Below, piece after piece: positions 6,665 to 22,783 of a stretch of 64,000 bases of DNA. Numbering within the stretch: position 1 is the first letter of the stretch; every line of letters starts with the position of its first letter. The DNA is from a virus. The translations under genes were made by a program, and so were the position numbers. The notes beneath the pieces are model-generated. The model had not been told where the DNA came from, made no database searches, and saw only the letters and a program-made list of their open reading frames with translations. The stretch covers positions 77,604-141,603 of the IMG/VR virus record IMGVR_UViG_3300010354_000046; one strand, written 5' to 3'.

Positions 6665-7095
6665 ATGATAAAATTATCTGTAGTGGTGCTTTGATTTATT
6701 CAAGATCCACTCAAAGATTTCTTTTATTACAAAAAGCTCAAGGTAAACATTCAGGCACTTGGGGGCTTGTTGGCGGTACAATGCACGAAGATGAAAATCC
6801 ATGGCAAGGTTTACAACGAGAAATTACCGAAGAAATAGGTAGTATGCCTGAAATAACAAAAACAATACCTTTAGAAACATTTGTCAGCAACGATACTGTG
6901 TTTAATTTTCACACTTATTTGTGTGTAGTTGAAAATGAATTTGTTCCCTTGCTAAGTGACGAGCACTCAGGGTGGGCGTGGTCAACTATGGATTCAACAC
7001 CAAAACCATTACATCAAGGTCTACGTAATAGTTTTAGTAATAAAACAGTAAAGACTAAACTACAAACTGTTTTCAATGTTATGGATTTGATTTAA
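6646..7095 (+). CDS. Nudix hydrolase
   Basis: Nudix box GGTMHEDENPWQGLQREITEEIG plus EHSGWAW. Confidence 0.9.
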   Translation: MENRNINDKIICSGALIYSRSTQRFLLLQKAQGKHSGTWGLVGGTMHEDENPWQGLQREITEEIGSMPEITKTIPLETFVSNDTVFNFHTYLCVVENEFVPLLSDEHSGWAWSTMDSTPKPLHQGLRNSFSNKTVKTKLQTVFNVMDLI

Positions 7096-8560
7096 TATAA
7101 TCGATCCATTGTTTGTGATTCACAGCATTTCTTTTCGTTTGATCTTTAATTAGGTTAATTTTTTCCGAGTAATTTTTTGTTGCGTTATAAAGATGATGGT
7201 GATCTAAAAATTTCTTTAGCCCTTCTTTATTCTTAATCAGACCGTGACCGTATGCTACACAAGTAAAACTAGTAGATTCAAACATAAATCTATCATTTGG
7301 AATATCTTTACTTGTCAGGACTCCGTAGTTAAATTTTTCTTCCATTTCCAGTATCCATTTGGGTTTATTACCGGTCATGTATCGCCAAAAGTCGCTATCT
7401 GTGCGGTTGGTGTTATAGAAAAATCTAATATACTTGAAGCTATTTTCATAGATTTCTGACATCGTATTATTATAGTTTCTTTGATCATACGCAAGATGTG
7501 TTCCTTGAAATAGTCTTGTAAAATTATCAATTTGTATAATTAGATGATGAATACTGGTAGCTTCTAAAGGTTCAACAAATCCGCTAGCAAGACCGATAGC
7601 AAGACAGTTACCTATCCATTGATTGTTATAGTAGCCGCTTGTAAAATTGATGACTCTATCGCTTTGCAATTCAACATCGTGTGTTTCAACTAACCATCGA
7701 TTAAAATCATTTTTTGCTTCTTCGTCTGTAGTAAATTTACTACTATAAACGTAACCTGTTCCTCGTCTGTTACTTAACGGAACATCAAGAATCCATCCGT
7801 TTTTGCTGGCAGTGGCTGTTGTATACGGAGGTATTTCATTAAAATTTTTAAACAACGGATTGGGTATAGTTTTATTTGTAGGTAACAATTCTGACATATC
7901 AATCCAGTCGGCATTGAATTGTTTAATTAAAATACGTTCGTATCCAGAGGCATCAATATAAACATCTCCTCGTATTACTTCTCCTGATTGAAGTTTTATA
8001 TAATCAATAACATTGTCTTTAAGAATTACTTCCGAAACTATTCCGTCAATGGTTTTAATTTTATCTTTAAATTTATTTTCGACATATTTGCTGAAGAGAG
8101 TTGCATCAACATGTAGTGCATGTCGATAGGATAAATCATTTGTACTAGGAATTAAATTATTTTGAAAAAAGAATTGTCCGTAATTATAGCCACCATTAGC
8201 TTGATCTTGCAAGATTTCATAAGCTTCAATGGCGTTGTAATTAAACATCACAGAGTCGATTGCTGCTAAAGATTCGTTGTGAGGAAAGCTGTGATACCAT
8301 TCGGCTCCGGGTTGTGCCCAATCTTTAAATTTAAGCCCTAATTTTATTGTTGCATTACAGTCTCTAATTAAATCTAAAGTAGATATGCCTACAGCTTTTA
8401 AGTATGCATCGAACACCGGAGTTAAACTTTCTCCTACGCCGATTCCTGGTTTTTTATGATCGTAGATTACAGTTATTTCAGCCCGATCGCCCCAGTATGA
8501 TTTAAAATAACTAGAAGCAACTGCTCCGCTTGTTCCTCCACCAATAATGACAATTTTCAT
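7079..8560 (-). CDS. Flavin-dependent (tryptophan halogenase/PrnA family) protein
   Basis: GGGTSG, GVGES, ATIKLGLKFKDW (catalytic Lys position), GWILDVP and FVEPLEATSI. Confidence 0.85.
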   Translation of the reverse strand: MKIVIIGGGTSGAVASSYFKSYWGDRAEITVIYDHKKPGIGVGESLTPVFDAYLKAVGISTLDLIRDCNATIKLGLKFKDWAQPGAEWYHSFPHNESLAAIDSVMFNYNAIEAYEILQDQANGGYNYGQFFFQNNLIPSTNDLSYRHALHVDATLFSKYVENKFKDKIKTIDGIVSEVILKDNVIDYIKLQSGEVIRGDVYIDASGYERILIKQFNADWIDMSELLPTNKTIPNPLFKNFNEIPPYTTATASKNGWILDVPLSNRRGTGYVYSSKFTTDEEAKNDFNRWLVETHDVELQSDRVINFTSGYYNNQWIGNCLAIGLASGFVEPLEATSIHHLIIQIDNFTRLFQGTHLAYDQRNYNNTMSEIYENSFKYIRFFYNTNRTDSDFWRYMTGNKPKWILEMEEKFNYGVLTSKDIPNDRFMFESTSFTCVAYGHGLIKNKEGLKKFLDHHHLYNATKNYSEKINLIKDQTKRNAVNHKQWIDYIKSNP

Positions 8561-10014
8561 GTATGACTCCTAATTGCCAATAACATTTCTTTATGTGTTA
8601 GCACATCGTCTTGTTCAATTCTATTTGCATTTTCTAAATCTTCTAAAACTTTTAGTACATATTCTTTAGCTTCAACTGGTAGTGTGTCATACTCTTTTTT
8701 AATGCTATTTTGATCAAACAACTGTAGACCGTGAAGAATAAAAATATAGTGTAGTTCTTTAAACAAGACTGATTTCGATATTTTTTCAAAATCATCTTCA
8801 ACAGGCATCTTGTATCGCCACACATTCAAATTTTGTTCTAAACTAGGAGGAAGTTTAGTATCGGCAACCTTACGCCAAAATTCTGTGTCTCGACGCGGAC
8901 ACACAAAATGTAATGTAATAAAATCTCGAATGTTTTCGACTATGTCTCTAAATGACTCGTTGTATTTGTCAATAGCATCTTGATTGTAATTAACTAGTCT
9001 TGTGATTAGCATAAAACATTGCTGTATAGTAGCTCCAATACTGCTTGCTTCGAGCGGTTCAACAAAACTACTACTCAACCCTAACGCACAACAATTTTTA
9101 ATCCAAGCATGATCTAATGCGCCTGGTTCAAATTTAATATGTTGTCCTACTGTTATTTCATGACCTAATACTTTTTCAACTTCAATTTTTGCCTGCTCAG
9201 GAGTTAAAAAACTGTCATCAAAAATGTAACCATTGCCCCAACGGCCGTAAGTTGGTGTCCTAAAAAGCCATCCGTAATCCATTGCTTGAGCAAGACTCCA
9301 CATATTATAATTTTCTGTATCTGGAGTCTGAAATACGATTGCGCTATTTGTATGAAGATATTCTTTGTGACTTATCCATTTGGCTCCAAGTTTACTAATA
9401 AGAAACTTTTTAAAACCTGTACAGTCAGCGTAAAAATCGTATTTGTATGTTGCATCTTCACTTTTTAATAAATCTATTCCGTCGTCATTTACTACTACTT
9501 CTGTTATTTCGTCGTGGTAGATTGTAATTTCTCGATCTAAAGCAATCTTTGTTAGATAGTCATTTAGTTTGAATGTATTGAAATGGTACTGCGCTACTGG
9601 TGTTCTATTATTATCTAAAAACCACTTTTGCACTTTATTTTCCCAAAAAATTTCTCCAGATAATCTCCGAGAATCCATGCCGTCACTTACAAGTTTAGCA
9701 TATATCATAGGATACTTTTTTAACCATACTAGATTGTATCCGTCTTGTATACTATGCATGTAATCGGGTACTCCCCAATTTTTAAAAACAATTCCCATCT
9801 TCATTGTAGCATCAGTTTCGACTATCATTTCCCCTGTGTTAATGCCTACAAAATCTGCAAATGCACTCCAGTGTTCGGTTGATCCTTCGCCTACTCCTAT
9901 AATTCCAATTCGCTTGCTACAAATAATATCGACTTGGTAATTTGGAAACCTTGTTTTAAGTATTAACGCAGAAACAAGTCCGGCTGTTCCGCTTCCAACA
10001 ACTGCAATACGCAT
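8557..10014 (-). CDS. Flavin-dependent (tryptophan halogenase/PrnA family) protein
   Basis: GSGTAG, GVGEG, ATMKMGIVFKNW, GWLFRTP and FVEPLEASSI. Confidence 0.85.
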   Translation of the reverse strand: MRIAVVGSGTAGLVSALILKTRFPNYQVDIICSKRIGIIGVGEGSTEHWSAFADFVGINTGEMIVETDATMKMGIVFKNWGVPDYMHSIQDGYNLVWLKKYPMIYAKLVSDGMDSRRLSGEIFWENKVQKWFLDNNRTPVAQYHFNTFKLNDYLTKIALDREITIYHDEITEVVVNDDGIDLLKSEDATYKYDFYADCTGFKKFLISKLGAKWISHKEYLHTNSAIVFQTPDTENYNMWSLAQAMDYGWLFRTPTYGRWGNGYIFDDSFLTPEQAKIEVEKVLGHEITVGQHIKFEPGALDHAWIKNCCALGLSSSFVEPLEASSIGATIQQCFMLITRLVNYNQDAIDKYNESFRDIVENIRDFITLHFVCPRRDTEFWRKVADTKLPPSLEQNLNVWRYKMPVEDDFEKISKSVLFKELHYIFILHGLQLFDQNSIKKEYDTLPVEAKEYVLKVLEDLENANRIEQDDVLTHKEMLLAIRSHT

Positions 10015-10790
10015 TACTTTATACTCCTAAAAGGACATGCATCAGTTTCAAGAGTTTTTATGAATAAATCTCGAGTTTTAGATTGTTTTAAAAATGTTTT
10101 AGCACCAGTCGACACTTGTGTTTTTTTAATCCACTCTTGTTCGCTAATAACTTGTATTTTTAATTCGACTTTTTTATCGGTAAGAGGAATGATGTGGACA
10201 AGAGGAGTTCCAGCTTTCATAATAAATTCTTGCCTTATATTTGGAATCTCCATAAATGTATGCAAATGTAAACAATGCTGGCTGTTAAAATCAATAACAC
10301 CTCCAGCTGGCGCTAATTTATTAATCCAGAAAGGATCGTTGTTAGTAGTCCAATAGGGTTTTTGTATTAAAAATTTTGTACCAGTGGGTTCTTCTATATG
10401 CCATGGAAGCACTATCTTTACATGCTGATATCCATTAAACCCGCTCCATTGTCCGGGCCAGTGACTTTCTAAAGCAAACGGATTATCTGCACTAATAAAA
10501 CTATATTTGCCATCAGTATCTATAATAACACTTACGTCAGTCCACAACGGAGCCATGAATCCAGTTTTAAAATAATCAATAACACCCGGGCAACCTTTAA
10601 GCGTTCCTGATGGGATTTTGTGCCTTGCGCCAGTTCCTGGATTTGTTTTTTCTTCGATTGTTTCCAAGGGCAAATCTTTAATCCAACCTGGGTAAAATTT
10701 CATTGCTGGCATTATGGGTGTTGTTTTAGCAATCATCGAATCGTATGTAAAACAATTCAGTGTTATTTTTGATTTCTTAAAAAAGAACAT
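10014..10790 (-). CDS. Hypothetical phage protein (CP..DY..G / GTPL..IIP type, possibly beta-clip/dUTPase-like fold)
   Basis: 258-aa ORF translationally coupled on both sides; motifs KGCPGVIDYFKTGF and KAGTPLVHIIP. Function unknown. Confidence 0.6.
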   Translation of the reverse strand: MFFFKKSKITLNCFTYDSMIAKTTPIMPAMKFYPGWIKDLPLETIEEKTNPGTGARHKIPSGTLKGCPGVIDYFKTGFMAPLWTDVSVIIDTDGKYSFISADNPFALESHWPGQWSGFNGYQHVKIVLPWHIEEPTGTKFLIQKPYWTTNNDPFWINKLAPAGGVIDFNSQHCLHLHTFMEIPNIRQEFIMKAGTPLVHIIPLTDKKVELKIQVISEQEWIKKTQVSTGAKTFLKQSKTRDLFIKTLETDACPFRSIK

Positions 10791-11440
10791 TATGCATCAA
10801 CTCCTACATTACCGGCAATGCTTATTCTGTAATCGTCGCTAGTATAAAACGGATTAACACTATGCGTCAGAGTTGCTGGAAAAAATAACATTTTTCCCTC
10901 AAACTCCTTGTCTACAGGTATAACCATTCCGCTATGTTGTCCTACTATGTTCGAATAATGAAATGTAAATTTAGAAACACGACGACTCTGGTCATTCATA
11001 TCGGGAAACATTCTGTCTTCGTCTTCTAAATTATAAGGAATTTTAATCCAGATAACAAAGCTAAAAATACCTGTGTGCAAGTGCGGCGGATTAAATTCAT
11101 GTTTCTTTTGAAAGTTAACCCATAAATTTTTTAGTTTAAATTTCCTATTATCATTGTAAATGCCAATATCAACTTGAGGAGTGTAGTTCCATTTTTCATC
11201 GTATAATTTAGTTAACGCAAGAGCTAAAGGCTCAACAGCATTCCAACAATCACTATTGGCAACATATTCGTGGTTTAAGTGACCTAGTAGATTTCTTTGA
11301 AATCCTTGATAAGAATCAAACTTTGATTCAAGCATTTGTTGAACGCTCGAAGTTAATACTTGCATAACATCGTTGGGTACAATTGCATCTATAACCCCAA
11401 TGTTTGGTAAATCTCGAAATCTTGTGAGTAAGTTGTTCAT
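10790..11440 (-). CDS. Putative 2OG-Fe(II) oxygenase (HxH type)
   Basis: WVNFQKKHEFNPPHLH...FFPATLTHSVNPF...RISIAGN. Confidence 0.8.
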   Translation of the reverse strand: MNNLLTRFRDLPNIGVIDAIVPNDVMQVLTSSVQQMLESKFDSYQGFQRNLLGHLNHEYVANSDCWNAVEPLALALTKLYDEKWNYTPQVDIGIYNDNRKFKLKNLWVNFQKKHEFNPPHLHTGIFSFVIWIKIPYNLEDEDRMFPDMNDQSRRVSKFTFHYSNIVGQHSGMVIPVDKEFEGKMLFFPATLTHSVNPFYTSDDYRISIAGNVGVDA

Positions 11441-12087
11441 ACTAATCTTAAGTTTCCTGCAACAGATATTCTGTAGTCGTCACTGGTATAAAATGGATTT
11501 ACACTATGATTTAAGTGAGATGGGAATATTGCAATATTTCCTTCAAAATTTTTGTCTATGTTTAATGAATAATTTCTAAGTTGGCCAAGTACGTTGTTAT
11601 AATGAAAAGTAAACTTCGATGTTCGTGGGTCGCTGTTACTTACAACAGGAAATACTTTACGCTCGTCGTCTAAATTATAAGGAATGCGAACCCATATAAC
11701 AAAACTTAAAATTCCAGTGTGTGTATGTACAGGATTAAATTCGTATTTTTTTTGAAAATTTACCCATAGATCAGTAAGTCTTAACTGCTTCGGAACTGTT
11801 ACATTAAACTGCTCGTCTAGTTCTTGGAAATAATGCCATTTTTCGTCGTACAAATTTGCTAAATGCAAAATAAAAGGCTCGATTTGCGGTATTAAGCCGT
11901 GCATGCCGTATTCGTTGTTCATATGTCCCAGCAGTAAATTTCGATAGTCGAATTCTTTATCAAACCCGCCGTTTAACATTCTATCAATATCTTGATTTAA
12001 GATACTCATTATTTCGTCAGGTACTTGGGCTATTAAAACTCCATATGTTGGAAGCTCCCGAAAATCTATAGAAAGTTGCTTGGTCAT
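11437..12087 (-). CDS. Putative 2OG-Fe(II) oxygenase (HxH type), paralogue of the neighbour
   Basis: WVNFQKKYEFNPVHTH...IFPSHLNHSVNPF...RISVAGN. Confidence 0.8.
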   Translation of the reverse strand: MTKQLSIDFRELPTYGVLIAQVPDEIMSILNQDIDRMLNGGFDKEFDYRNLLLGHMNNEYGMHGLIPQIEPFILHLANLYDEKWHYFQELDEQFNVTVPKQLRLTDLWVNFQKKYEFNPVHTHTGILSFVIWVRIPYNLDDERKVFPVVSNSDPRTSKFTFHYNNVLGQLRNYSLNIDKNFEGNIAIFPSHLNHSVNPFYTSDDYRISVAGNLRLV

Positions 12088-12172
12088 GTATTATCTCGTA
12101 AGTTTACTATATATCACAATCTCCCGAGTAGGTTTTAGAGTTTAGATAAATTACATAAACAAGGAAACTCAT

Positions 12173-13768
12173 ATGGACAGAAATAAGACGATTAAAAAAA
12201 TAGTTATAGTTGGCGGCGGATCGGCTGGGTGGATGACTGCTGCAACATTAAAACATTTTTTTCCGTTAAATGAAGTAGTTGTTATTGAAAGTCCGGATAT
12301 TCCAATTGTGGGTGTCGGGGAAAGTACATTGGGAGGTATACGTTACTGGACCCAAGCCCTCGGTATTGATGAGAAAGATTTCCTGTCTTACACAAATGGG
12401 TCGTACAAATTAAGTATTAAATTTACTGATTTTTATGATAAAGATGCAGGGTCTTTCCACTACCCGTTTGGAACGCCTGTGCTTACCGATGCGCCCGAAG
12501 GTCTTAACGAGTGGCAAGCAAAAAAAGTAATTTACCCCGACACGCCTGTGGAAGATTATTGCAGAACATTTTATTCGCAGATGCCTTTGATTGAAGGTAA
12601 TAAGTATAGTTTGAATGAAGATGGCGATATTGACGGCTACCGAACTGATTCAGACGTAGCTTACCATTTTGATGCTCAGCTATTTGGAAGATGGCTTCGT
12701 GAACGGTACTGCATTCCGAGAGGAGTACAGCGTACAGAGGATACAGTCGTTGACATCAAAACCAACGACGACGGAATTGAAAAATTAATTTTAAAATCAG
12801 GCCAAGAAGTTACTGCTGATTTATTTGTTGATTGCACAGGTTGGAAAAGTATGCTGCTAGGCGGTGCTCTTAAAGAACCGTTTACTTCTTATGAAGACAT
12901 GTTGCCAAATAATAGAGCATGGGCGGTACAATTGCCCTATGTAGATCCTGAAAAAGAAATTGAACCGTATACTAATTGTACTGCTATTGGACACGGTTGG
13001 TGTTGGAATATTCCGTTGTGGAGTCGTTTAGGCACTGGGTACGTGTACAGCGACAAGTATATTGACCCCGAAGGCGCTAAAGAAGAATTTAAACAGTATC
13101 TTATGAGTAATAAGATGACTGTTCCTAGAACCAAAGAACAAGTAGATGCGTTACAGTTCCGTGATATCCAAATGAGAATTGGAATCCATGAACGCACATG
13201 GGTTAAGAATGTAGTAGCTATTGGGCTTTCTGCGGGGTTTATCGAACCCTTAGAAAGTAACGGATTGTTCAGCGTTCACGAGTTCCTTATGATGCTGGTA
13301 GCAGCTCTTGAAAGATCTCATACTAGCCAGTGGGACAAAGACGGTTATAACACCGCAACTTTATCTTTATTTAGAAATTTAGCAGAATTTGTAGCATTAC
13401 ACTATGCCCTAAGCGGCCGCAATGATACAAACTACTGGGAAGCTATTAGCAAAAAAACATTTGATCCTGGAATGGTCAAGCGTATTCCTACTATTAACAG
13501 AGGATTTGCAGACCTTGTAGATAAAAAGTTTTTTATGTTTGGACACAATTTACCCGGCGGCATTCATTGTATTGCAACAGGGATGAATTATTTTGTTATG
13601 AATCGTGCAAACATTATACACGCCGAGTGGAAATTTGGGCATAACGCAAAACGTGTGTTGGATGAATTTATATTCAAAAGAAAATTCCTACAAGATAAAT
13701 GGCAACGTGCAGCAGATCGATCTCCGACACTCTATCAATTTTTGAAAAATAAAATTTATAATGACTGA
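12173..13768 (+). CDS. Flavin-dependent tryptophan halogenase-family protein with canonical motifs
   Basis: GGGSAG, GVGEST, SYKLSIKF, intact GWCWNIP (WxWxIP) and FIEPLESNG. Confidence 0.9.
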   Translation: MDRNKTIKKIVIVGGGSAGWMTAATLKHFFPLNEVVVIESPDIPIVGVGESTLGGIRYWTQALGIDEKDFLSYTNGSYKLSIKFTDFYDKDAGSFHYPFGTPVLTDAPEGLNEWQAKKVIYPDTPVEDYCRTFYSQMPLIEGNKYSLNEDGDIDGYRTDSDVAYHFDAQLFGRWLRERYCIPRGVQRTEDTVVDIKTNDDGIEKLILKSGQEVTADLFVDCTGWKSMLLGGALKEPFTSYEDMLPNNRAWAVQLPYVDPEKEIEPYTNCTAIGHGWCWNIPLWSRLGTGYVYSDKYIDPEGAKEEFKQYLMSNKMTVPRTKEQVDALQFRDIQMRIGIHERTWVKNVVAIGLSAGFIEPLESNGLFSVHEFLMMLVAALERSHTSQWDKDGYNTATLSLFRNLAEFVALHYALSGRNDTNYWEAISKKTFDPGMVKRIPTINRGFADLVDKKFFMFGHNLPGGIHCIATGMNYFVMNRANIIHAEWKFGHNAKRVLDEFIFKRKFLQDKWQRAADRSPTLYQFLKNKIYND

Positions 13769-14369
13769 TTTATATCCTTTATTTTCTCAGCCGGTATTAA
13801 CTGTTGATACGGACAAATCAAAGCTGGTAGATCTTGTATCTTATTGTGAAAATGTGCTACAATACAGATCTAACGCTGGAGGTAATTTTACTAGTTTGAA
13901 TACAAGTGTATTAGATCTTGCCGAGTTCAGTGATGCAAAAGAACTGATTAACAACGCCATTAAAGTATACACCCAAGAAGTAATGTCCTGGACTGACGAA
14001 GGTTTAAATTTCTTTGTAACTCAATCTTGGGTTAACAAAAATCCAAGAGGAACATGGCATCACGAACATTATCATTTGAATACAGTTTTAAGCGGTGTAT
14101 TATATTTGCAAACTGTTGAGAATGATAGTATATCTTTTGTTAACAACTCGAAACCATTTTTTAAGTTTTACCCAACAGTTTCGAATATTTGGAATAGCGA
14201 AAGATTTAATATTGAAGCTAAAGATAATAGAGTAGTGTTATTTCCAAGTGGAATGTTGCACGGCGTGCCTTCGCATAATTCAAACTATAATAGATTTAGT
14301 TTGGCTTTTAACGTGTTTGTTAAAGGAAAAATTGGTAGCAAGGAAAATTTAACATATGTTGAATATTAA
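13761..14369 (+). CDS. Putative 2OG-Fe(II) oxygenase (TIGR02466-like)
   Basis: SWVN...HHEHYH...SGVLYL...LFPSGMLHGV...RFSLAFN. Confidence 0.8.
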   Translation: MTDLYPLFSQPVLTVDTDKSKLVDLVSYCENVLQYRSNAGGNFTSLNTSVLDLAEFSDAKELINNAIKVYTQEVMSWTDEGLNFFVTQSWVNKNPRGTWHHEHYHLNTVLSGVLYLQTVENDSISFVNNSKPFFKFYPTVSNIWNSERFNIEAKDNRVVLFPSGMLHGVPSHNSNYNRFSLAFNVFVKGKIGSKENLTYVEY

Positions 14370-14377: not shown

Positions 14378-15319
14378 ATGAAAAGAAACACAGCATTTTT
14401 AATCAATGGCGGAGCGGGGCGTGTACTGAGTTCCATTCCTGCTTTCGAACTTTACGAAAAAGAAAATCCCGAGGATAATTTTATCATTGTTGTTGAAGGA
14501 TTTATGGAGTTATTTAAAGGGCATCCAACTTTATATAAAAGATGTTACGAGTTTAGTCATCGTAATTTATTTGAAGATAAACTACGAGATATGAATTATT
14601 TTCAGCCTGAGCCTTACCAAGTATGGGAATACTATAATCAAAAAGCTACAATTTCTCAAGCATTTGATATTGCTATTAATAAAAAGGGGCTTCGAGAAGT
14701 ACCTAAGCCCACTATTGCTCTTACCACAGAAGAAAATTTAGGGGGCGCTGAAACTCTAAAAAATATTCGCAAAGACTTCAATAATAAAAAAGCCATAGTT
14801 ATTCAACCCTTTGGAAGAGGGTCAAATATGAATCATCATGCTCATAATATCGATATGGGCGGTCGATCATTTATGCCCGAACATGCTGCCAAACTGATCA
14901 AACGCCTACAGAAAAAATATTGTGTTATTGTTATGGACGAAAAACAACACGATTTTAAAGCATTAGGATGTGAAGACGTTGTTGTACAGATGACAGGAAT
15001 GACTTTACGTCGATGGATGGGCGTTATTAACTCTGCTAGCTACTTTGTCGGCTGCGATAGTATTGGTCAGCACATTGCGTATGCCTTAGGAAAACCGGCT
15101 ACAATTATCATTGGGTCAACATTTAAAGAAAATGTGTCGTACCCTAACGCTAAGAATTTTAATATTATTGACCTAGGTGAAGGCCGTAAAATGTACAGCC
15201 CTATTAGAATGTGTTTTAATGAAATTGCAGATGTTAACAACGATAAACTAATGCACTTAAAAGATTCAGATTATGATAAAATTGTTGCTTCTATCGAAAA
15301 CGGAATGAATAAGGTATGA
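14378..15319 (+). CDS. Glycosyltransferase, GT9/heptosyltransferase-like GT-B fold
   Basis: N-terminal GGAGR.L, IVIQPFG, and FVGCDSIGQHIAYALGKP matching the GT9 D-S-x-x-x-H-x-A-x-A motif. Confidence 0.7.
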   Translation: MKRNTAFLINGGAGRVLSSIPAFELYEKENPEDNFIIVVEGFMELFKGHPTLYKRCYEFSHRNLFEDKLRDMNYFQPEPYQVWEYYNQKATISQAFDIAINKKGLREVPKPTIALTTEENLGGAETLKNIRKDFNNKKAIVIQPFGRGSNMNHHAHNIDMGGRSFMPEHAAKLIKRLQKKYCVIVMDEKQHDFKALGCEDVVVQMTGMTLRRWMGVINSASYFVGCDSIGQHIAYALGKPATIIIGSTFKENVSYPNAKNFNIIDLGEGRKMYSPIRMCFNEIADVNNDKLMHLKDSDYDKIVASIENGMNKV

Positions 15320-15924
15320 CGTCATTTGAAATTATTCCTTTATTTCCTCAAGCGTTATATAGGGCTGTTTTTCGGCCCTTAACTTCCACTGAGATTGAAA
15401 TAATTGATAATTTCCCTGTTGAAAAGCAACAGTTGGGTAATCATACTAGTCATGTACCTTACTTTTTAAACGAACCTGGATTAGAAAATTTAAAAAAAGA
15501 TTTAGAAGAGCATATCGATACATATGTAAGAGAAATAATGAAAGTTGACTACAATGTGTATATTACCAATTCTTGGAAAAATTTAACCAAGCCCGGTGAG
15601 CAGCATATGATACACAACCATTCAAACAGCATTATTTCTGGATGTTTGTACCTAAGATCGAGTCACATCCAACCTACTATATCTTTTACTAGAGGAAATT
15701 TTCCTTATCTGCTTGCATTTGAGCCAACAGAATTTACGCCATTTAACGCATTAGAGTGGACCATTCCGGTTGAGGATAACAATATTATTTTATTCCCGTC
15801 AACTATGCATCATTGTGTAAAGACCAATCAAAGTAACAAAGAAAGAATGAGTCTTGCATTTAATACATTTGTTAGAGGTAACATCAGGACTCAATATACA
15901 GGAGCAGATTTAATCTTAAAATAA
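15316..15924 (+). CDS. Putative 2OG-Fe(II) oxygenase (TIGR02466-like)
   Basis: SWKN...HMIHNHSNSIISGCLYL...LFPSTMHHCV...RMSLAFN. Confidence 0.8.
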   Translation: MTSFEIIPLFPQALYRAVFRPLTSTEIEIIDNFPVEKQQLGNHTSHVPYFLNEPGLENLKKDLEEHIDTYVREIMKVDYNVYITNSWKNLTKPGEQHMIHNHSNSIISGCLYLRSSHIQPTISFTRGNFPYLLAFEPTEFTPFNALEWTIPVEDNNIILFPSTMHHCVKTNQSNKERMSLAFNTFVRGNIRTQYTGADLILK

Positions 15925-15927
15925 ATT

Positions 15928-17718
15928 ATGAAAAAACCTATTTGGATTGCAGCAATTACTAGAGGGCATAATGCCAGTGTATGTTTACTAAAAGACGGAG
16001 AAATTGTTTTTAGTATTGAAGAAGAGAGATTAAGTCGACACAAATATGACGGCGGTCCTTTTGCTTCGATGATAAAAATTTTAGAATATACGGATAAACT
16101 TGATTATCTTGTTGTTGCACACACTCAAACATTAGACGACACCGCAGGAAAAATTGACTTCACTGGAGATAACGTTTATACAGGTCTTGCAAGAAAACTA
16201 GGATTAATCAATCGCAAAGAAAACATTTATAAACATCCACAAGTTATTGATTTAAGTCATATACACCATAAACTTCATGCTGCTTGTGCATTTTATCGAA
16301 GTGGTTTTGAAAATGCAGTTGCAGTTATTGTAGATGGCGCAGGAACATTTTTACCGTTAAGTGTAAACAACGAAGCAGTAATTGGCTGGGAAACAGAAAG
16401 TCTTTACGACTGTTCCTACCCTAGTAATTTTACAACATTATATAAACACATTGGGCTACGAGGACCTAATTCTGGTATGTTAGTTAAGAATTTTGATAGT
16501 TCAATGTATGACGAGCCTGGTAAAACACACGAAGCGTTTATCACAGACCGTGCAGGTATTACTAAAGTATACGAAGCAGTTACCCAGTACTGTGGATGGA
16601 GCCCTATTGAAGCCGGTAAAACTATGGGGTTATTTCCATATGGTAACAAAACAGACAAGATACCTAAGTTATTTGACGAATCAAGTGTAAGGCCGGTATC
16701 GAACAGAAACCTTATTGTTCCTACTTATCCTAACGGTGCTGTGGTTAATCATGGCTTGTTTGAGTATTTAAATGAGCACGAAGCACAAGACATTACATAT
16801 CTTGATAACCGTCGAGACTTAGCTTATGCCTGTCAAACACAAACTCAAGAACAGTCGCTTAAATTAATAAAATATGCTGTTGAAAAAAGCGGGAATAAAA
16901 ATGTAGTGTTTAGTGGAGGTTACGGTTTAAATTGTGTTGCCAATTACTATTATCTAAATGAGCTTAGAAAAGACGGTATTAACTTCTACGTTGAACCTAT
17001 TAGTAATGATGCTGGAACAGCGATTGGTGCAGCATTAATGTGGTGGCACAAACTTACTAATGATTGTACTATTAGAAAAGGAAAAACACTTTATCTTGGT
17101 CCTAAAAAAACTTATAGTAATGAAGAAATTTATAAGGAAGTTAACAAAGCAAATGTACAGATAAAAGATGCATCTTATGCAGACATTGTCAAGCTGTTAA
17201 CAGAAAAAAACATTGTTACACTATTCCAAGGATCTAGTGAAAACGGTCCAAGAGCATTAGGAAATCGTAGTGTACTATTTGACCCTAGGTTTGCAGATGG
17301 TAAAGACTATGTTAATAATGTAAAACACAGAGAATATTTTAGGCCGTTTGCAGGCAGTATTTTACAAGAATTTGTACACGAATGGTTTGATTTACGTGGC
17401 ATGGAGGACACTCCTTTTATGATGTATGCTGTAAATTGCCAACCAGGAGTAGAAGAAAAAATACCAAGTATCATTCATGTCGACGGAACTTGTCGTATAC
17501 AAACAGTAACACAAGAACAAAATTATCATTACTATAATTTGATTAAAGAATTTTATAATCAAACAGGATGTCCAATTATCTTTAATACTAGTTTTAACTT
17601 AGGTGGTGAACCATTAGTTGAAACATTAGAAGATGCTATATGGACCTTAACAAATTCGGACATTGAATATTTGTTCTTACCTGAGTATAATAAATTAATC
17701 ATTGTTAAAAATAAATGA
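15928..17718 (+). CDS. Carbamoyltransferase (NodU/CmcH/TobZ family)
   Basis: EEERLSRHK, HHKLHA, VDGAG, GKTMGL, SGGYGLNC.AN, DAGTAIGA, GPRALGNRS, KHREYFRPFA, HVDGTCRIQTV and NTSFN. Confidence 0.95.
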   Translation: MKKPIWIAAITRGHNASVCLLKDGEIVFSIEEERLSRHKYDGGPFASMIKILEYTDKLDYLVVAHTQTLDDTAGKIDFTGDNVYTGLARKLGLINRKENIYKHPQVIDLSHIHHKLHAACAFYRSGFENAVAVIVDGAGTFLPLSVNNEAVIGWETESLYDCSYPSNFTTLYKHIGLRGPNSGMLVKNFDSSMYDEPGKTHEAFITDRAGITKVYEAVTQYCGWSPIEAGKTMGLFPYGNKTDKIPKLFDESSVRPVSNRNLIVPTYPNGAVVNHGLFEYLNEHEAQDITYLDNRRDLAYACQTQTQEQSLKLIKYAVEKSGNKNVVFSGGYGLNCVANYYYLNELRKDGINFYVEPISNDAGTAIGAALMWWHKLTNDCTIRKGKTLYLGPKKTYSNEEIYKEVNKANVQIKDASYADIVKLLTEKNIVTLFQGSSENGPRALGNRSVLFDPRFADGKDYVNNVKHREYFRPFAGSILQEFVHEWFDLRGMEDTPFMMYAVNCQPGVEEKIPSIIHVDGTCRIQTVTQEQNYHYYNLIKEFYNQTGCPIIFNTSFNLGGEPLVETLEDAIWTLTNSDIEYLFLPEYNKLIIVKNK

Positions 17719-18230
17719 TACAACATTTTTCAGAATTTGTTGAGCCGTGGCTGCATAACAAAGCTAAAGAACAATTGCTGAGTCCTATGCTGGACTGGAA
17801 TTTTCCTACATTTGGTGGTCAAGATACTGATATAAAGTATGCTTGTTTTGGTAGATGTGCTCTAAATTTAAGTAAAAATTATGTAAACTGGAATAGAGTT
17901 GAATCGTTAACTTATGTGTTAGATAACTGGTTAGAGCGTAACAAGAATTGGTTTCAAGTTGATCTTGTCGGTAGATGTATAATGAATTTTTATACTCCGG
18001 GCCAGCAAACAGAGTGGCACACAGATAATACTTATAACATGCCAGGACTTTATAGCCTACTGTATTATGTAAATGATGCTGACGGTGGAACAGAATTTAA
18101 GGATCACAAATATTACCACCAGGAAAACACAGGAATATTGTTCGATTCTTATACATTGCATAGACCAATAGTATCTACGGTGCCCCGAAGAATAAGTGTA
18201 AGTTGGATAATTCAAGGACGAGTATTATGA
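17715..18230 (+). CDS. 2OG-Fe(II) oxygenase (HxD type, prolyl-hydroxylase-like)
   Basis: WHTD, LYYVNDADGGTEF, distal His and RISVSW. Confidence 0.8.
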   Translation: MIQHFSEFVEPWLHNKAKEQLLSPMLDWNFPTFGGQDTDIKYACFGRCALNLSKNYVNWNRVESLTYVLDNWLERNKNWFQVDLVGRCIMNFYTPGQQTEWHTDNTYNMPGLYSLLYYVNDADGGTEFKDHKYYHQENTGILFDSYTLHRPIVSTVPRRISVSWIIQGRVL

Positions 18231-19414
18231 AAGTTGCAGTATTGGGCGTGGGCACAGCTGGAATTATGTCGCTGTGTCATGCATTACGATGGTTATGTCC
18301 AAAAGACAGTACTGTAACTTCAATATATGATCCCAAGTTTCCAATTTTAGGAATTGGAGAAACATCTCAACCTGGATTCCAAACTTTATTATTTGAGTCA
18401 ACCGGTTTCACTTTTTTAGACGATGCTGATAAATTGGATGCAACCATTAAATTAGGTGGAATGTGGAAGAATTGGAGAGACGATGACTTTAATGCGTGTC
18501 TTACTGCACCATCTTATGCTATACATTTTAATAATTTTAAATTGAAAGAATTTTGTTTTTCGAGGTTTAATAAAAAATACCAAAGTAAATTTTTAGTATC
18601 CGAAGGTAACATAGACAGTATAACTAATGCAGGAACTTGTGTGCTAGTAGTTGTCGACGGCATAGAATATCAATACGACTATGTTATTGATTGTAGAGGT
18701 TATCCTACAGACCTGAGTGAATACTATGTTGTTGAAACTCCAACTGTAAATAGTGCATTGGTAAACATAATTAATGAACCGGGTACATGGAACGCTACTG
18801 TTAACCAAGCTACAAAGAACGGCTGGATGTTCGGGCTACCTTTACAAACAAGACAAGGGTGGGGATATCTATATAATGATAAACTTACTACAAAAGAAGA
18901 AGCAATAAAAGATATTGAAGAAATCTTTAATAAAGAGAACATAGAATTAAAAGAATTTAAATTTAACAGTTATCATGCTAATACATTTTTTGACGGTAGA
19001 ATTTTAAAAAACGGAAACAGGGCGTTCTTTTTTGAACCAATAGAAGGGCAGGCGGGATTTTTTTACGAAATCGCCTTGCGGTATCTTGTAGATTATGTGT
19101 ATGGCCAGTGTTCTGTAGCAGATGTTAACAGACACCTTTTAGATGCAGCAAAAGATTTAGAATTATTCATTAATTTTATATATCACGGCGGCAGTAAGTT
19201 TCAAACAACTTATTGGAGTCATATATCAAAAGTGGCTAGAGAAAAACTAAACAACAACGAAAAATGGAATTATATTGTTTCTACCGTGAATAATTATTTA
19301 AAATTTGGTGGGCAAGAGCCGCCAACTAACACTATAGGTCGTTGGAGTGTTCACCACTGGAAAATGTGGGATAAAAAGTTAGGCTATAATTATTTTTATG
19401 ATAAAAACATTTAA
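18227..19414 (+). CDS. Shorter, divergent tryptophan halogenase-family flavoprotein
   Basis: Start placed at ATG 18227 (ATGA overlap, AGGA RBS); GVGTAG, GIGETS, ATIKLG, GWMFGLP and FFEPIEG. Confidence 0.8.
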   Translation: MKVAVLGVGTAGIMSLCHALRWLCPKDSTVTSIYDPKFPILGIGETSQPGFQTLLFESTGFTFLDDADKLDATIKLGGMWKNWRDDDFNACLTAPSYAIHFNNFKLKEFCFSRFNKKYQSKFLVSEGNIDSITNAGTCVLVVVDGIEYQYDYVIDCRGYPTDLSEYYVVETPTVNSALVNIINEPGTWNATVNQATKNGWMFGLPLQTRQGWGYLYNDKLTTKEEAIKDIEEIFNKENIELKEFKFNSYHANTFFDGRILKNGNRAFFFEPIEGQAGFFYEIALRYLVDYVYGQCSVADVNRHLLDAAKDLELFINFIYHGGSKFQTTYWSHISKVAREKLNNNEKWNYIVSTVNNYLKFGGQEPPTNTIGRWSVHHWKMWDKKLGYNYFYDKNI

Positions 19415-19910
19415 TAAATTTGTACCCGATTGGCTACACCGCCGGGCGCATGAACAGTTACTAAGCCCGTATGTAGATTGGCACTTTCCTGGAAACGGGG
19501 GCTATTACGGTGACATCGATAAAGCATGTTTTGCTAAATTGTTGTTTGATGAAGAGCGAAATTATTCAGATTTTTCAGGAGTTGATTCTTTAGTTTATGT
19601 GCTAGAATCTTGGTTAGATCAAAATAAAAGTTGGTTTAAATTTGAAAGATTGAACCGTTGTATATTAAATTTTTATACACCGGGTATGACTATCGGATGG
19701 CATACAGATCACTCTAATTCTAGGTACCATACATTAATTTATTATGTAAATGACAGCGACGGAGGAACTGAGTTCGAGACTGTCAAAGTCCCACATAGAG
19801 AAAATTCCGGTGTTATATTAAAATCAAAGGACTCACATAAAAATATGGAGTCCTCTGTTCCGCGACGCATAAGTGTCGCATGGATTTTAGTCGGCGATAT
19901 TATGGATTAG
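19398..19910 (+). CDS. 2OG-Fe(II) oxygenase (HxD type), paralogue of 17715..18230
   Basis: WHTD, IYYVNDSDGGTEF and RRISVAW. Confidence 0.8.
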   Translation: MIKTFNKFVPDWLHRRAHEQLLSPYVDWHFPGNGGYYGDIDKACFAKLLFDEERNYSDFSGVDSLVYVLESWLDQNKSWFKFERLNRCILNFYTPGMTIGWHTDHSNSRYHTLIYYVNDSDGGTEFETVKVPHRENSGVILKSKDSHKNMESSVPRRISVAWILVGDIMD

Positions 19911-20427
19911 TAGCTTTGCCCCACTTGTCCTCAGGATTCCAAGGTGCTTTGGGCCAAGGTACTCCAAGATGGCTTTTAAGTTTTGTCAAATCAATATTAT
20001 CTGTCATATCTCTTAGAGCCTGTCGATAATCGGCCCATGCTTGCTTATCTTCTGGACTCAGTGGACTATCAGGCATTTGTGTCCAATCACTCGTAACAAA
20101 TTTATGTAATCGTTGTCCGTGTATCCATCGGCGATATTTTTCTCCCGGGCTAATTTCTGTAAATACCCAAGTTTGTTCAATACTACCATCAGGATTTTTT
20201 ACAATTTCTCCCGGAGCAACTTCTTCCCATTCTTCTACTATCGGAGGATAGGCGTTTTTAATTTCGACAATACTTTGAGAAGCCAGTAACCCAGGAGTTA
20301 ACTCGTTGAAAGTCAACACCCTGGTTTGAGGATCTTCAATAGCAAATAAATGTCTTACATTTTCTTCGATTAAGGGAGGGCCCGATGGCAACCCGTCTTC
20401 GTCAATGTACGTGTAAAGTTTCTGCAT
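19900..20427 (-). CDS. Tail fibre assembly chaperone-like protein
   Basis: C-terminal SDWTQMPDSPL...WADYRQALRDM...WPKAP motif; directly downstream of the fibre gene. Confidence 0.8.
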   Translation of the reverse strand: MQKLYTYIDEDGLPSGPPLIEENVRHLFAIEDPQTRVLTFNELTPGLLASQSIVEIKNAYPPIVEEWEEVAPGEIVKNPDGSIEQTWVFTEISPGEKYRRWIHGQRLHKFVTSDWTQMPDSPLSPEDKQAWADYRQALRDMTDNIDLTKLKSHLGVPWPKAPWNPEDKWGKATNP

Positions 20428-20458
20428 TCATAACTCCATTATACGTTATATTTAAAAA

Positions 20459-22783
20459 TTAACCCGATGAATTAGGGTAAGTTCTGGTTGCTGGCCATAC
20501 AATTCGAACGGCGCCTTTGCCGCCCCAACCTCCTCCGTGTGATGTGCCACCGCCGCCACCACCGCCACCATAGAAGCCACCGCAATTATAACCATGGCCG
20601 TTACCGTTAGCCCATGGCTCGCCTGCAAGTCCGCATGTTCCGTTAGATCCAAACTGGCCGCCAGTTCCTGTAGAATGCCCGTTAAACGGACTGCCGCAAG
20701 CACCGTTATTACCTTGAGCACAAATGCCAGTGCCACCGCCACCACCAGTTCCATAAGTTGAACTATGATGTGAGCCAGCTGATCCGCCACCGCCGTAGCA
20801 TCCAGTGTGGCCAGAGTTACTATACCAGCACTGATTTGGACCGTAGCCACCACCGCCACCACCGCCACCAGCGGTGTTAGGGAATGTAATAGTTCCTGGC
20901 CCGCCTGGCCCGCCATTACAGCCACAACCGGTACAGCAACCGCAATGTCCGCCGCCACCAATAATACCTGGGAAGCATGAATATCCGCCAGCTGATTGAC
21001 TCCAGCAGCCGCCGTTACCAACTTGAACGGTATAGCTTGAGCCGCTGCTAACAGAAATACTATTTTGATATGTTAATCCGCCGCCGCCGCCGCCACAAAC
21101 AGCCCAGCCGTAATAGCCTCCACCGCCAGCACCAATAACAGCAACGTTAACAGAGTTAACACCAGCTGGAGCGGTCCATGTATATGATTGTGTACCACCG
21201 TTTTGGTTAGATTGGGCACCTTCATATAAGCTAGCACCTGGTGGAGGAGGGGCAATACTAAATGCTGAAATAACGCAAATACATTGGAAACACATACAGA
21301 ATCCGCAGCCGCAACTTAAACACTGGCAGCATAGCGCACTTTGTCCGCTAACTTGTAAGTAACCTAATGTACCATGGCTTGTTAAGCTAGAAGCTGTAAC
21401 GTTAGATGCTAGTGTACCGCCTTGGATACAGCAAGCAACTGTTGTGTTAGCACACACAGAACAGTTAACGTTAAAGTTACTTGGGTTCCAAACATAAGCA
21501 TCGCTTGAACTGTTTGCTCCCCATAACCATGTTGGTTGTCCAGACTGTCCGTTCCAGTGGAATGCTTGTGTTGTACTATCGTTATACAAGCGACCTGCTG
21601 TACATGCACATCCACCAATGTTCATACTTGCTGCTAAACCGCTAAAGTTAGTAGCAGTAAATGTTGGAGCAGCTCCGCTGTTGATGTTTTGTGGTAAGCT
21701 AATTGTAATATTACCAGTTGCTGCACTAACGCTAACTTGGTTAGTTGTACCAGCTAAACTTAGTACACCAGTATTTGTTAGTGTAACAGATCCACTTGGG
21801 CCACTAATTGTACCACCACCAGACATACCTGTGCCAGCACTGACTGTTACACTGGTTAACACACGATTGTTATTGTCAGTAACGTTGCTACTAAAGCTAC
21901 CAGTTGTTGCACTAATACCAGCACCAAAAGTTCCTGAGCTAGCAACGTTTAAGATGCCGCCTGCACGAATGTTTTCACTTACACCTAACCCACCAGTAAT
22001 TACTAACGAACCGGTAGAAGTACTTGAACTACCAATGTTTGCAGTAATATTAGACTGTGCATTAGCTTGAAATGTTGTAAAGTTACCTGCTGCTCTTGTA
22101 GTAGCACCAATACGCATATTATCAATATCGCCCGTGCCGCCAGAACTGATAGTAATTGCAGCACTACCTGTTGTAGTATGACTTTGGTTGTTTGCGCCAG
22201 TGTTAGCAACAATTGCACCAGTAAATGTAGCTGTACTGTTAGCGGCCAATGTTGTAAATGCACCAGTACCACGTGTAGTAGCACCAATGTTCACATTATC
22301 CATTGTACCAGTACCAGCAGATGTAATTGTAACACTACCGCCTGTTGATGGAGTAATTGTAACGTTTGAACCACTTGGGTTCATTGTGATTGGGCCACCG
22401 TTTGCAGTAAACCCGCCGTTCATGTTAACAGCACCACTAAATGTAGCACCAGTACGAGTAATATTTCCACCCTCGTTGTTTGTTACCATGTAATTAGTAC
22501 CATCAGATACTATTGTAAATGATGAGTTATGGGGAATTGTTTGCGATGTTGCGGATGTAAATCCGTTACCCATAATAACACCAGTTGGCGTTGTAATTGT
22601 ACAGTTGCCTCCTGTGTTATTATAAAATGTTTGTGACCAACCTTGAGAATATGCTGGTGTAACTACTGTTACAGCATATCCCGGTGTTCCGGTCATTGTT
22701 ATGATGCTACCATTGATTGCATATGTAAACGTGGTAGCACCGGTAACAGTTAAGTATAACGATACTGTATTATAACGTGCCAT
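20459..22783 (-). CDS. Tail fibre/adhesin with Cys-rich neck and glycine-rich tip
   Basis: Thr/Gly-rich beta repeats (DN..IGATTR..G.FTT, SSTSTGSLVITGGLGV); C-terminal WTAPAGV.SV.V..IGAGGGG...GGKGAVRIVW Gly-rich domain. Confidence 0.75.
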   Translation of the reverse strand: MARYNTVSLYLTVTGATTFTYAINGSIITMTGTPGYAVTVVTPAYSQGWSQTFYNNTGGNCTITTPTGVIMGNGFTSATSQTIPHNSSFTIVSDGTNYMVTNNEGGNITRTGATFSGAVNMNGGFTANGGPITMNPSGSNVTITPSTGGSVTITSAGTGTMDNVNIGATTRGTGAFTTLAANSTATFTGAIVANTGANNQSHTTTGSAAITISSGGTGDIDNMRIGATTRAAGNFTTFQANAQSNITANIGSSSTSTGSLVITGGLGVSENIRAGGILNVASSGTFGAGISATTGSFSSNVTDNNNRVLTSVTVSAGTGMSGGGTISGPSGSVTLTNTGVLSLAGTTNQVSVSAATGNITISLPQNINSGAAPTFTATNFSGLAASMNIGGCACTAGRLYNDSTTQAFHWNGQSGQPTWLWGANSSSDAYVWNPSNFNVNCSVCANTTVACCIQGGTLASNVTASSLTSHGTLGYLQVSGQSALCCQCLSCGCGFCMCFQCICVISAFSIAPPPPGASLYEGAQSNQNGGTQSYTWTAPAGVNSVNVAVIGAGGGGYYGWAVCGGGGGGLTYQNSISVSSGSSYTVQVGNGGCWSQSAGGYSCFPGIIGGGGHCGCCTGCGCNGGPGGPGTITFPNTAGGGGGGGGYGPNQCWYSNSGHTGCYGGGGSAGSHHSSTYGTGGGGGTGICAQGNNGACGSPFNGHSTGTGGQFGSNGTCGLAGEPWANGNGHGYNCGGFYGGGGGGGGTSHGGGWGGKGAVRIVWPATRTYPNSSG

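Follow-up and report, generated by a model that had tools for sequence, protein, structure and literature searches.

Organisation of the locus

The analysed window was the last 64 kb (64,000 nt) of the 141.6-kb IMG/VR contig IMGVR_UViG_3300010354_000046, which has an estimated completeness of 38%. The present analysis concerns a cassette of 13 genes at positions 7079-19910 of this window and the adjoining gene for a tail fibre with a Cys/Gly-rich tip. A preliminary description of the DNA had listed the cassette, and all of its open reading frames (ORFs) were recovered by the ORF listing and Pfam scans. The four proposed PrnA-family flavoproteins all matched Trp_halogenase (PF04820), and the six 2-oxoglutarate (2OG)-type oxygenase genes were assigned by Pfam family to 2OG-FeII_Oxy_5 (four genes) and 2OG-FeII_Oxy_3 (two genes). 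The GT9-like transferase was confirmed by its predicted fold, the Pfam match itself lying below the cut-off. The carbamoyltransferase was confirmed by Carbam_trans_N and Carbam_trans_C, both above the cut-off. The tail-to-tail overlaps with the flanking genes were also exact, with 17 nt shared with a Nudix gene (7079-7095) and 11 nt with a chaperone gene (19900-19910).

The cassette has a single gap, an 85-nt control region (12088-12172) from which two arms diverge. The minus-strand left arm starts with the paralogues ox2 (11437-12087) and ox1 (10790-11440), which encode PF13759 oxygenase-like proteins (both E about 5e-10). They are followed by unk258 (10014-10790; phrog_7084), coding for a 258-aa protein with a dUTPase-like beta-barrel fold, and by the halogenase genes hal2 (8557-10014; PF04820, 1.5e-80) and hal1 (7079-8560; PF04820, 4e-89), the latter for a flavin-dependent halogenase of the PrnA/VirX1 family. 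The right arm, on the plus strand, begins with hal3 (12173-13768; PF04820, 3.5e-106) for a VirX1-like halogenase, the first gene of a conserved core operon. Next are ox3 (13761-14369; PF13759, 6e-16), gt9 (14378-15319; phrog_8954, 1.6e-122) for a GT9-fold, heptosyltransferase-like glycosyltransferase, ox4 (15316-15924; PF13759, 3e-17) and cbt (15928-17718; Carbam_trans_C, 3e-57; Carbam_trans_N, 3.3e-25) for a NodU/CmcH-type carbamoyltransferase. The arm ends with ox5 (17715-18230), the short halogenase gene hal4 (18203-19414; PF04820, 5e-26) and ox6 (19398-19910), ox5 and ox6 encoding oxygenases of the prolyl 4-hydroxylase (P4H)-like 2OG type. In either arm, neighbouring genes touch or share 1-28 nt, and these overlaps suggest translational coupling. 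The GC content was 0.34 in the cassette versus 0.46 in the fibre gene, a difference due mostly to Gly and Cys codons.

Genes for export, resistance or scaffold formation were not found in the cassette by Pfam scans, and the earlier statement that nonribosomal peptide synthetase and polyketide synthase genes are missing from it was thereby upheld. The same was true for the lack of a small precursor-peptide gene, since such a gene does not fit in the sole intergenic gap of 85 nt. The comparison with ribosomally made peptides that carry post-translational modifications (RiPPs) in the preliminary description did not hold beyond analogy. No leader peptide or recognition element was present, RiPP-type families were absent from the Pfam scans of the cassette, and the candidate substrate is a structural protein of 774 aa.

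The tail fibre and its Cys/Gly-rich tip

The tail fibre gene (20459-22783, minus strand; phrog_4474, 2.4e-27) encodes a protein of 774 aa in three parts. Residues 1-390 form a shaft with 31% Ser+Thr, residues 391-520 a neck with 15 Cys and residues 521-774 the tip domain, which has 35% Gly with poly-Gly runs and 14 Cys. Altogether, 29 of the 30 Cys of the fibre are located after residue 392. The tip matched Pfam Gly_rich_2 with 0.0068 and 16.9 bits, below the cut-off of 24.3. Between tip and cassette lies the gene for the tail-fibre assembly chaperone (Phage_tail_APC; 19900-20427, minus strand; PF16778, 1.1e-12), and a chaperone gene adjoins the tip protein gene in all related loci.

In the related loci that resemble the window, termed class A below, tips were 60-92% identical and seven tip Cys were invariant. 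The tip (window 20462-21247) is unusually conserved for a receptor-binding region; the shafts and necks of class A differ widely. In many other phages, the tip counterpart is a stand-alone Cys-rich protein. Pairwise BLAST of the tip against such a protein was not significant, and a tblastn search with the whole fibre against isolates returned one marginal match. Moderate support for a relationship came from hhalign, with a probability of 83% and an E value of 9e-6 over the first 61 columns. The stand-alone proteins share the opening W-x-x-P-x-G-V...G-A-G-G and the closing G-x-G-x-V-R-I-x-Y of the tip. A Pfam scan of those from class B, described below, gave no match.

The neck contains nine Cys within 19 residues (485-503; window 21274-21331), followed by PPPP. 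This run was kept only in the closest relatives, in full in L004 and partly in L005 and L025, and no reading considered here explains it. Neck Cys were absent from L006, L010 and L012, all of which still have cassettes, so a co-variation of the nine-Cys neck with the cassette was not borne out.

Gene neighbourhoods across phages

The predicted co-variation of cassette and Cys-rich fibre was found for gt9 and cbt and was weaker for the halogenases and oxygenases, which in this jumbo-phage group are confined to a single clade with the fused fibre. With the fibre as anchor, each of the 11 loci that carry a tip relative had the chaperone and the cassette immediately adjacent. With the Cys-rich proteins as anchor, gt9 and cbt were located downstream in 57 of 70 loci; 12 loci were truncated and one was without the two genes, which leaves 57 of 58 informative loci. 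The sole informative exception, L114 (6960-10705 and downstream), had three Cys-rich paralogues and a chaperone, with gt9 and cbt absent in the next 6 kb. With cbt as anchor, 80 loci were obtained, in which cbt was 60-94% identical. They showed the order fibre, p106, p108, one to four Cys-rich proteins, chaperone, gt9 and cbt, and the same order was present in the cyanophages P-SSM2 and S-CAM1. The linkage spans about 100 distinct carbamoyltransferase lineages, these two phages included, and in most of them gt9 and cbt are co-directional with the fibre genes.

The 80 loci were divided into three classes. In class A, the core hal3-ox3-gt9-ox4-cbt was constant down to 41-67% protein identity, and the periphery varied by gain, loss, duplication and inversion of hal4, ox5/6, hal1/2 and unk258. 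Class B was the largest. Its loci comprised a giant fibre, p106, p108, three Cys-rich paralogues (320-410 aa, 9-11% Cys, 15-18% Gly), a chaperone-like protein of about 215 aa, gt9, cbt, more fibre genes, Nudix and gp15, all co-directional and with neither halogenase nor oxygenase. Some class B loci have two chaperone-like genes. Class C was marine and had the layout of P-SSM2 and S-CAM1, with three Cys-rich proteins of about 260 aa, the APC chaperone, 2OG-like genes, gt9, cbt and one to three Trp halogenases. After these came oxygenases of PF13640 and PF13759 along with a PfkB kinase, a protein resembling cytidylyltransferases, an epimerase and a further carbamoyltransferase.

Cellular genomes were searched with the gt9 profile in one genome per species, covering 185,579 prokaryote species. 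Only 16 loci were detected, all on contigs of metagenome-assembled genomes, and 15 of them shared elements of the phage module, the exception being L185, the weakest, which had no probe match. The gt9 subfamily was found in no cellular lipopolysaccharide (LPS) cluster among these genomes. In the divergent loci L179, L181 and L183, proteins with 9-10% Cys are encoded directly upstream of gt9, one of them a fused protein of 1257 aa.

A cbt tree of 104 distinct sequences placed all class A loci in one clade nested among B and C. The association of the halogenase and oxygenase expansion with the fused fibre therefore counts as a single event, and its reading as co-variation within class A was rejected. 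In Syn9, P-TIM40, Sf-CH11 and class C, too, fibre and chaperone genes have members of the halogenase and oxygenase families next to them. In Syn9 and P-TIM40, the fibre, small Gly-rich proteins and fibre-assembly genes are followed, in the same direction, by two halogenases, an unk258 homologue and three 2OG oxygenases. The distribution suggests that gt9 and cbt track Cys-rich tips and that halogenases and oxygenases track fibre-tip regions more loosely.

Glycosyltransferase, carbamoyltransferase and probable sugar donor

The protein encoded by gt9 matched Pfam Glyco_transf_9 (PF01075) with an E value of 5e-4 and 19.8 bits, below the 22-bit cut-off, and a sequence search against the PDB gave nothing useful. 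By its sequence and profile matches, it is a divergent GT9 subfamily, phrog_8954. An AlphaFold2 model had a mean predicted local distance difference test (pLDDT) score of 88.5. The top Foldseek matches of this model were all GT9 structures (3TOV, 1PSW, 2GT1 and 4RAP, with WaaF, WaaC and TibC among them; E 1e-10 to 4e-9), and the protein O-heptosyltransferase TibC (4RAP) was matched equally well as WaaC and WaaF. The motif G-C-D-S-x-G-Q-H, which we take to be the GT9 donor-binding motif, was invariant in the family (34 sequences). The product of cbt scored 89.7 bits with Carbam_trans_N and 193.3 bits with Carbam_trans_C.

Genes of a nucleotide-heptose pathway are located beside gt9-cbt in P-SSM2, S-CAM1 and class C. 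The contig of the window carries such genes itself at about 20,500-23,640, on the minus strand and about 56 kb upstream of the window: an epimerase, a PfkB kinase, a cytidylyltransferase-like protein, a cupin and a second epimerase. Because these genes are present both on the contig and beside gt9-cbt in relatives, a nucleotide-heptose donor is likely to be made by the phage itself. The gene set on the contig matches the one flanking gt9-cbt in P-SSM2. It adjoins an M23 peptidase, an AlgH-like protein, an HNH endonuclease and a weak radical-SAM match. A SIS-type GmhA was not found on the contig, which, being 38% complete, gives no evidence of its absence. For the NodU-type enzyme, O-carbamoylation of a heptose-type sugar would be the simplest role. 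In many class B phages, cbt is directly followed by another GT9-like paralogue (gt9-cbt-gt9'; for example L047, L056-L061, L102 and L106), an arrangement that suggests a two-sugar or two-acceptor variant.

Halogenases, oxygenases and the dUTPase-fold protein

The best PDB match of Hal3 was the cyanophage halogenase VirX1 (6QGM, E 1.2e-94). VirX1 is a trimer with a large, unusually open active site; it accepts many small aromatics in vitro, and its natural substrate has not been reported (PMC8407142). In an alignment of the four halogenases of the cassette, the flavin adenine dinucleotide-binding motif GxGxxG and the GxGE motif were invariant. Also invariant were the catalytic Lys K79 and E358/E361 of E-P-L-E/E-P-x-E (Hal3 numbering), and K79 of Hal3 aligned with the corresponding region of VirX1. 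The WxWxIP motif was complete only in Hal3 (G-W-C-W-N-I-P); Hal1, Hal2 and Hal4 kept the first Trp and the Pro and lacked the second Trp. Hal4 is without an insert of about 57 residues and without the C-terminal region, and its Lys and Glu are kept. The true start of hal4 is probably ATG at 18227 and not TTG at 18203. The ATG would give the usual four-base ATGA overlap with the upstream oxygenase gene and remove eight odd N-terminal residues.

The products of ox1-4 are members of PF13759 above the cut-off and, on this basis, putative 2OG oxygenases. In PF13640, Ox5 reached 25.3 bits, just below the 27-bit cut-off, and Ox6 29.9 bits; the two are 49% identical. Both carry the canonical iron triad and the 2OG-binding Arg in W-H-T-D...H...R-R-I-S (H-x-D...H...R-x-S). 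A sequence search of Ox5 against the PDB gave nothing useful.

Sixteen homologues of Unk258 were obtained, none of them named. The model (pLDDT 76) resembled a dUTPase/dCTP-deaminase-like barrel (Foldseek E 5e-4; VIA Z 8.5, root-mean-square deviation 3.7 over 129 residues), and the predicted dUTPase fold is a borderline match. Unk258 is homologous to Syn9 gp43 (E 6e-12); in both Syn9 and P-TIM40, this protein comes after the pair of halogenases. Because these two phages share the arrangement, the halogenase pair and Unk258 form a conserved trio.

Flanking genes and phage identity

A Nudix hydrolase gene (6646-7095, plus strand; Pfam NUDIX, 1.5e-16) forms the left boundary of the cassette. It is preceded by the gene for a gp15-like tail-sheath stabiliser (5222-6664; T4-gp15_tss, 2.6e-23), and the gp15-Nudix pair flanks the module at related loci too. 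On the other side, the fibre is followed by p106 (22799-23119, minus strand; phrog_11338), a small conserved fibre-module protein that is 47-52% identical to the products of P-SSM2 and S-CAM1 genes. It precedes the tip proteins in jumbo phages as well as in these two cyanophages. Directly upstream of p106, positions 23137-41294 of the window encode two fibre-like giants (3191 and 2843 aa) with about 22% Ser+Thr. Their relatives flank the module in all classes, and they are alternative candidate acceptors for glycosylation.

The gp15-like protein was closest to those of the jumbo phages Phosso, Atu_ph07 and PA5oct. For this reason the source, an uncultured freshwater phage, is assigned to the jumbo phages, and the identity as a T4-like cyanophage was rejected. 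Neither the cassette nor its left flank had a megablast match among sequenced phages, a collection from which the record of the window itself may be absent. Near-identical DNA was present in freshwater and river metagenomes from nine studies.

Expression signals

The control region (12088-12172) contains GATAAATTA some 25 nt ahead of hal3, and GATATATAG precedes ox2. The GATAA(A)TTA element at the hal3 site is kept in class A relatives and resembles ATAAATAT. This octamer occurs four times in the 64 kb, which is below chance, and always between genes (3777-3784, 32735-32742, 57121-57128 and 61627-61634). Three of the four sites are just upstream of structural genes and the fourth precedes such a gene by about 330 nt. 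The octamer, which resembles T4 TATAAATA, is probably the core of the late promoter of the phage. The shorter, late-like GATAAAT, which the cassette contains, was at chance frequency within the window. An early-gene ribosome-binding-site tag and an early-promoter loop motif were not found in the cassette. A few contigs of 151-269 nt from one metatranscriptome matched hal3, gt9, the chaperone and the fibre exactly. DNA carry-over is possible for these and they give neither timing nor ranking, so they are a weak hint of expression of the cassette.

Proposed function

The region may be an expanded form of a tail-fibre-tip module that is widespread among phages and includes tip-modifying enzymes, a reading to which we assign a probability of roughly 0.5. 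The fibre tip, or the host-recognition protein that carries it, is probably decorated by the phage's own enzymes. The conserved core would consist of one or more Cys/Gly-rich tip (adhesin) proteins, an assembly chaperone, the GT9-fold sugar transferase and the NodU-type carbamoyltransferase. In the scheme that follows, we infer the identity of the sugar, the protein acceptor and every chemical step. During late morphogenesis, Gt9 would transfer a phage-made, nucleotide-activated heptose-type sugar onto the fibre protein, and Cbt would next O-carbamoylate that sugar. In the clade of the window, the tip is fused to the fibre shaft, and the module has gained four VirX1-type halogenases, the dUTPase-fold partner and six 2OG-type oxygenases. 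Halogenases and oxygenases would probably add halogen and hydroxyl groups to the same target, either the exposed aromatic, Pro, Asn and Lys side chains of the tip or the glycan. A dedicated multi-enzyme pathway that matures the tip by hydroxylation, halogenation (possibly iodination or bromination as with VirX1) and a carbamoylated heptose, and so gives it a surface that differs from the encoded one, is put forward as a tentative and rather doubtful extension.

The preliminary description had inferred that the substrate of the cassette is the virion, most plausibly the fibre tip. The linkage of gt9 and cbt to Cys/Gly-rich tips and their chaperone agrees with this, and the part concerning halogenases and oxygenases is less well supported, since in this jumbo-phage group they are restricted to one clade; the same families do recur near fibre and chaperone genes of other phages. 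Several observations weigh against modification of the tip. Small molecules, sugars or LPS are the classical substrates of all these enzyme families. Accessory genes are known to accumulate in fibre regions, and adjacency by itself is weak evidence for that reason. All modules may descend from one ancestral block, and class A, which bears the halogenases and oxygenases, is monophyletic, so that their pairing with the fused fibre is a single observation. In Syn9, P-TIM40 and Sf-CH11, the Gly-rich neighbours are not Cys-rich; they resemble the tip in composition and in a C-terminal motif only, and Syn9 gp36 was not supported as a homologue of the tip (hhalign probability 0.6%). The first beta-alpha loop of Gt9 reads G-G-A-G-R, with an invariant Arg where, judged by model position only, the catalytic Asp (D13) of WaaC appears. 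The pattern H-x-H...H...R is invariant in Ox1-4, which places a His at the position of the carboxylate ligand of the canonical H-x-D/E triad. The only solved relatives of Ox1-4, 2RG4 and 3BVC, are uncharacterised and have the same H-x-H pattern. Some relatives carry a sigma70-like TTGACA box upstream of hal3, and in the window both cassette arms converge with structural genes and possess a separate control region; for these reasons, late expression is only a possibility. Finally, the literature searched contained no case of virion-protein modification by this module, no paper tying these enzymes to fibre tips and no direct study of phage heptosyltransferases acting on virions or of Cys-rich cyanophage virion proteins. 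A precedent for glycosylation of phage virions is given by mycobacteriophages, as far as the citation of Freeman 2023 in PMC12619734 describes them.

Alternative explanations place the target elsewhere. Gt9 and Cbt, perhaps with other enzymes, could remodel the envelope of the infected cell by modifying its LPS or surface glycan, which would block superinfection or keep progeny from sticking to debris. Adjacency to the fibre would then follow from the co-evolution of receptor specificity and receptor masking. GT9 is the classical LPS-core heptosyltransferase family, carbamoylated heptose is an LPS-core decoration in Pseudomonas and tail-fibre genes often have accessory or conversion genes nearby. 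The neighbouring genes in P-SSM2 and S-SSM7 were annotated by Sullivan et al. 2010 as LPS genes, with their role left unknown (PMC3037559). Envelope remodelling is nevertheless considered unlikely. The gt9 subfamily was absent from cellular LPS clusters in the scan of species genomes, and in more than 100 lineages the genes form part of co-directional fibre operons, with the chaperone on one side and the next fibre gene on the other. The linkage is moreover specific to Cys-rich tip proteins and not to fibres generally, and these are large lytic-type phages with short infection windows. The LPS of marine picocyanobacteria is reported to contain neither heptose nor 3-deoxy-D-manno-octulosonic acid; this would account for the whole sugar pathway being brought by cyanophages and would leave no WaaC-type acceptor. 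A free metabolite could also be the target, for example an aromatic from a host precursor that is halogenated, hydroxylated, glycosylated and carbamoylated, or the oxygenases could draw down 2OG. All families present are standard natural-product tailoring families, NodU/TobZ-type enzymes carbamoylate small-molecule sugars, the substrate range of VirX1 includes many small aromatics (PMC8407142) and a role in 2OG or nitrogen stress has been proposed for cyanophages (PMC3037559). Such chemistry appears quite unlikely given a cassette with no scaffold-forming, export or resistance genes, a conserved position in the fibre module and tight linkage to tip proteins and chaperone in distant phages. The six paralogous oxygenases of two families, in the conserved order ox3-gt9-ox4-cbt, favour specific steps over bulk consumption of 2OG.

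The genes may, on another account, have no joint function, the fibre region being a recombination hot spot that collects independently useful or near-neutral genes. The term 'stuffer DNA' was raised in this context by Sullivan et al. (PMC3037559), and both the variable peripheral gene content of class A relatives and the lower GC content of the cassette (0.34 versus 0.46, mostly a Gly/Cys codon effect) are in line with it. A chance collection is improbable in view of the core order hal3-ox3-gt9-ox4-cbt, which is invariant in class A at 41-67% protein identity, and of enzymes that are better conserved than the fibre shaft. The 1-28-nt overlaps that suggest translational coupling and the recurrence of the same families together in separate clades speak against it as well. 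Hypermodification of DNA or nucleotides, in which oxygenase, glycosyltransferase, carbamoyltransferase, the dUTPase-fold protein and the flanking Nudix hydrolase decorate a base of the phage DNA, is highly improbable. Phage TET/JBP oxygenases with adjacent glycosyltransferases do hypermodify DNA, the predicted fold of Unk258 is dUTPase-like and the Nudix gene abuts the cassette. However, Pfam scans assigned no oxygenase of the cassette to the TET/JBP family, GT9 and NodU-type enzymes are not known as DNA modifiers and the Unk258 match is borderline. The Nudix-gp15 pair is present also in class B phages without oxygenases, and the module is located among fibre genes and not among replication genes.

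Comparison with known systems

The closest counterpart is the 'LPS gene' cassette of cyanomyoviruses (P-SSM2 PSSM2_301-313, S-CAM1 SXBG_00229-216 and S-SSM7; T4-GC 296-308, PMC3037559), which adjoins tail-fibre genes. It shows the same order of fibre, p106 homologue (47-52%), Cys-rich proteins, chaperone-like protein, GT9-like protein (45-49%) and carbamoyltransferase (47-50%). Both have nucleotide-heptose genes, although those of the jumbo phage are about 56 kb away. The tip consists of two to three stand-alone paralogues in the cyanomyoviruses, whereas it is fused into the 774-aa fibre in the jumbo phage, which differs further by the four halogenases, six oxygenases and dUTPase-fold protein interleaved with the core. 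Sullivan et al. 2010 recorded that prnA, the carbamoyltransferase gene and 2OG oxygenase genes occur sporadically in cyanophages and suggested 2OG drawdown or DNA repair for the oxygenases (PMC3037559). The heptose genes were given there as LPS genes of unknown function, possibly stuffer DNA, with no link to fibre tips (PMC3037559).

The halogenase part finds its counterpart in VirX1 and in the Syn9/Syn10/P-TIM40 block of halogenases and 2OG oxygenases; hal3 is a VirX1 homologue, and the substrates tried with VirX1 have all been small molecules. Syn9 and P-TIM40 resemble the jumbo phage in having the halogenase pair, the unk258 homologue and several 2OG oxygenases after fibre and fibre-assembly genes. 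In contrast, GT9 and carbamoyltransferase are absent from the block, and its Gly-rich neighbours are not Cys-rich.

For the sugar transfer, a possible analogue is the TibC/AAH system of the adhesins TibA and AIDA-I, in which the gene of a GT9-fold enzyme adjoins an adhesin that is O-heptosylated with ADP-heptose. The likeness consists of the fold and adjacency, and the 31% Ser+Thr of the fibre shaft may be counted with it. The sequence identity of TibC to Gt9 is 10-12%, the TibC/AAH system is without carbamoylation and the acceptor in the jumbo phage is putative. For the fibre, the analogue with a solved structure is phage Pam3 gp24, which has a TNF-like domain and a glycine-rich tip held by the chaperone gp25 and is related to the S16 gp38 adhesin (PMC9608196). 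These proteins share with the jumbo phage, as far as its sequence indicates, a distal Gly-rich domain (Gly_rich_2 below threshold here) and an adjacent TFA-type chaperone; unlike its tip, they are not Cys-rich and have no adjoining modifying enzymes. In mycobacteriophages, glycosyltransferase genes are located beside structural genes, and glycosylation of virion proteins was shown experimentally, according to what PMC12619734 relates of Freeman et al. 2023; for the jumbo phage, such glycosylation is a prediction. The glycosyltransferases described in that account are of other families, the targets are the capsid and the C-termini of the tail tube, and halogenase, oxygenase and carbamoyltransferase do not feature in it.

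The gene families and the cyanophage cassettes were thus already known. New are the consistent link to Cys-rich tips and the jumbo-phage variant, which has a fused fibre and the largest enzyme set in these searches.

Implications

Since 2005-2010, halogenases, multiple 2OG oxygenases, carbamoyltransferases and 'LPS' heptose genes have been listed in marine cyanophages with no function assigned to them, and VirX1 is likewise an enzyme whose natural substrate is not known. The linkage across T4-like cyanophages and freshwater jumbo phages offers one testable hypothesis for all of them, namely the chemical maturation of a receptor-binding protein. Isolates with parts of the module exist in P-SSM2, S-CAM1, S-SSM7, Syn9 and P-TIM40. 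If the hypothesis is true, the orphan halogenase, 2OG-oxygenase and 'LPS' genes of cyanophages would gain a single function. These phages would join the few viruses that encode their own virion glycosylation, and halogenation would be a new virion modification. The fibre sequence alone would then predict the host range incompletely for a large group of abundant aquatic phages.

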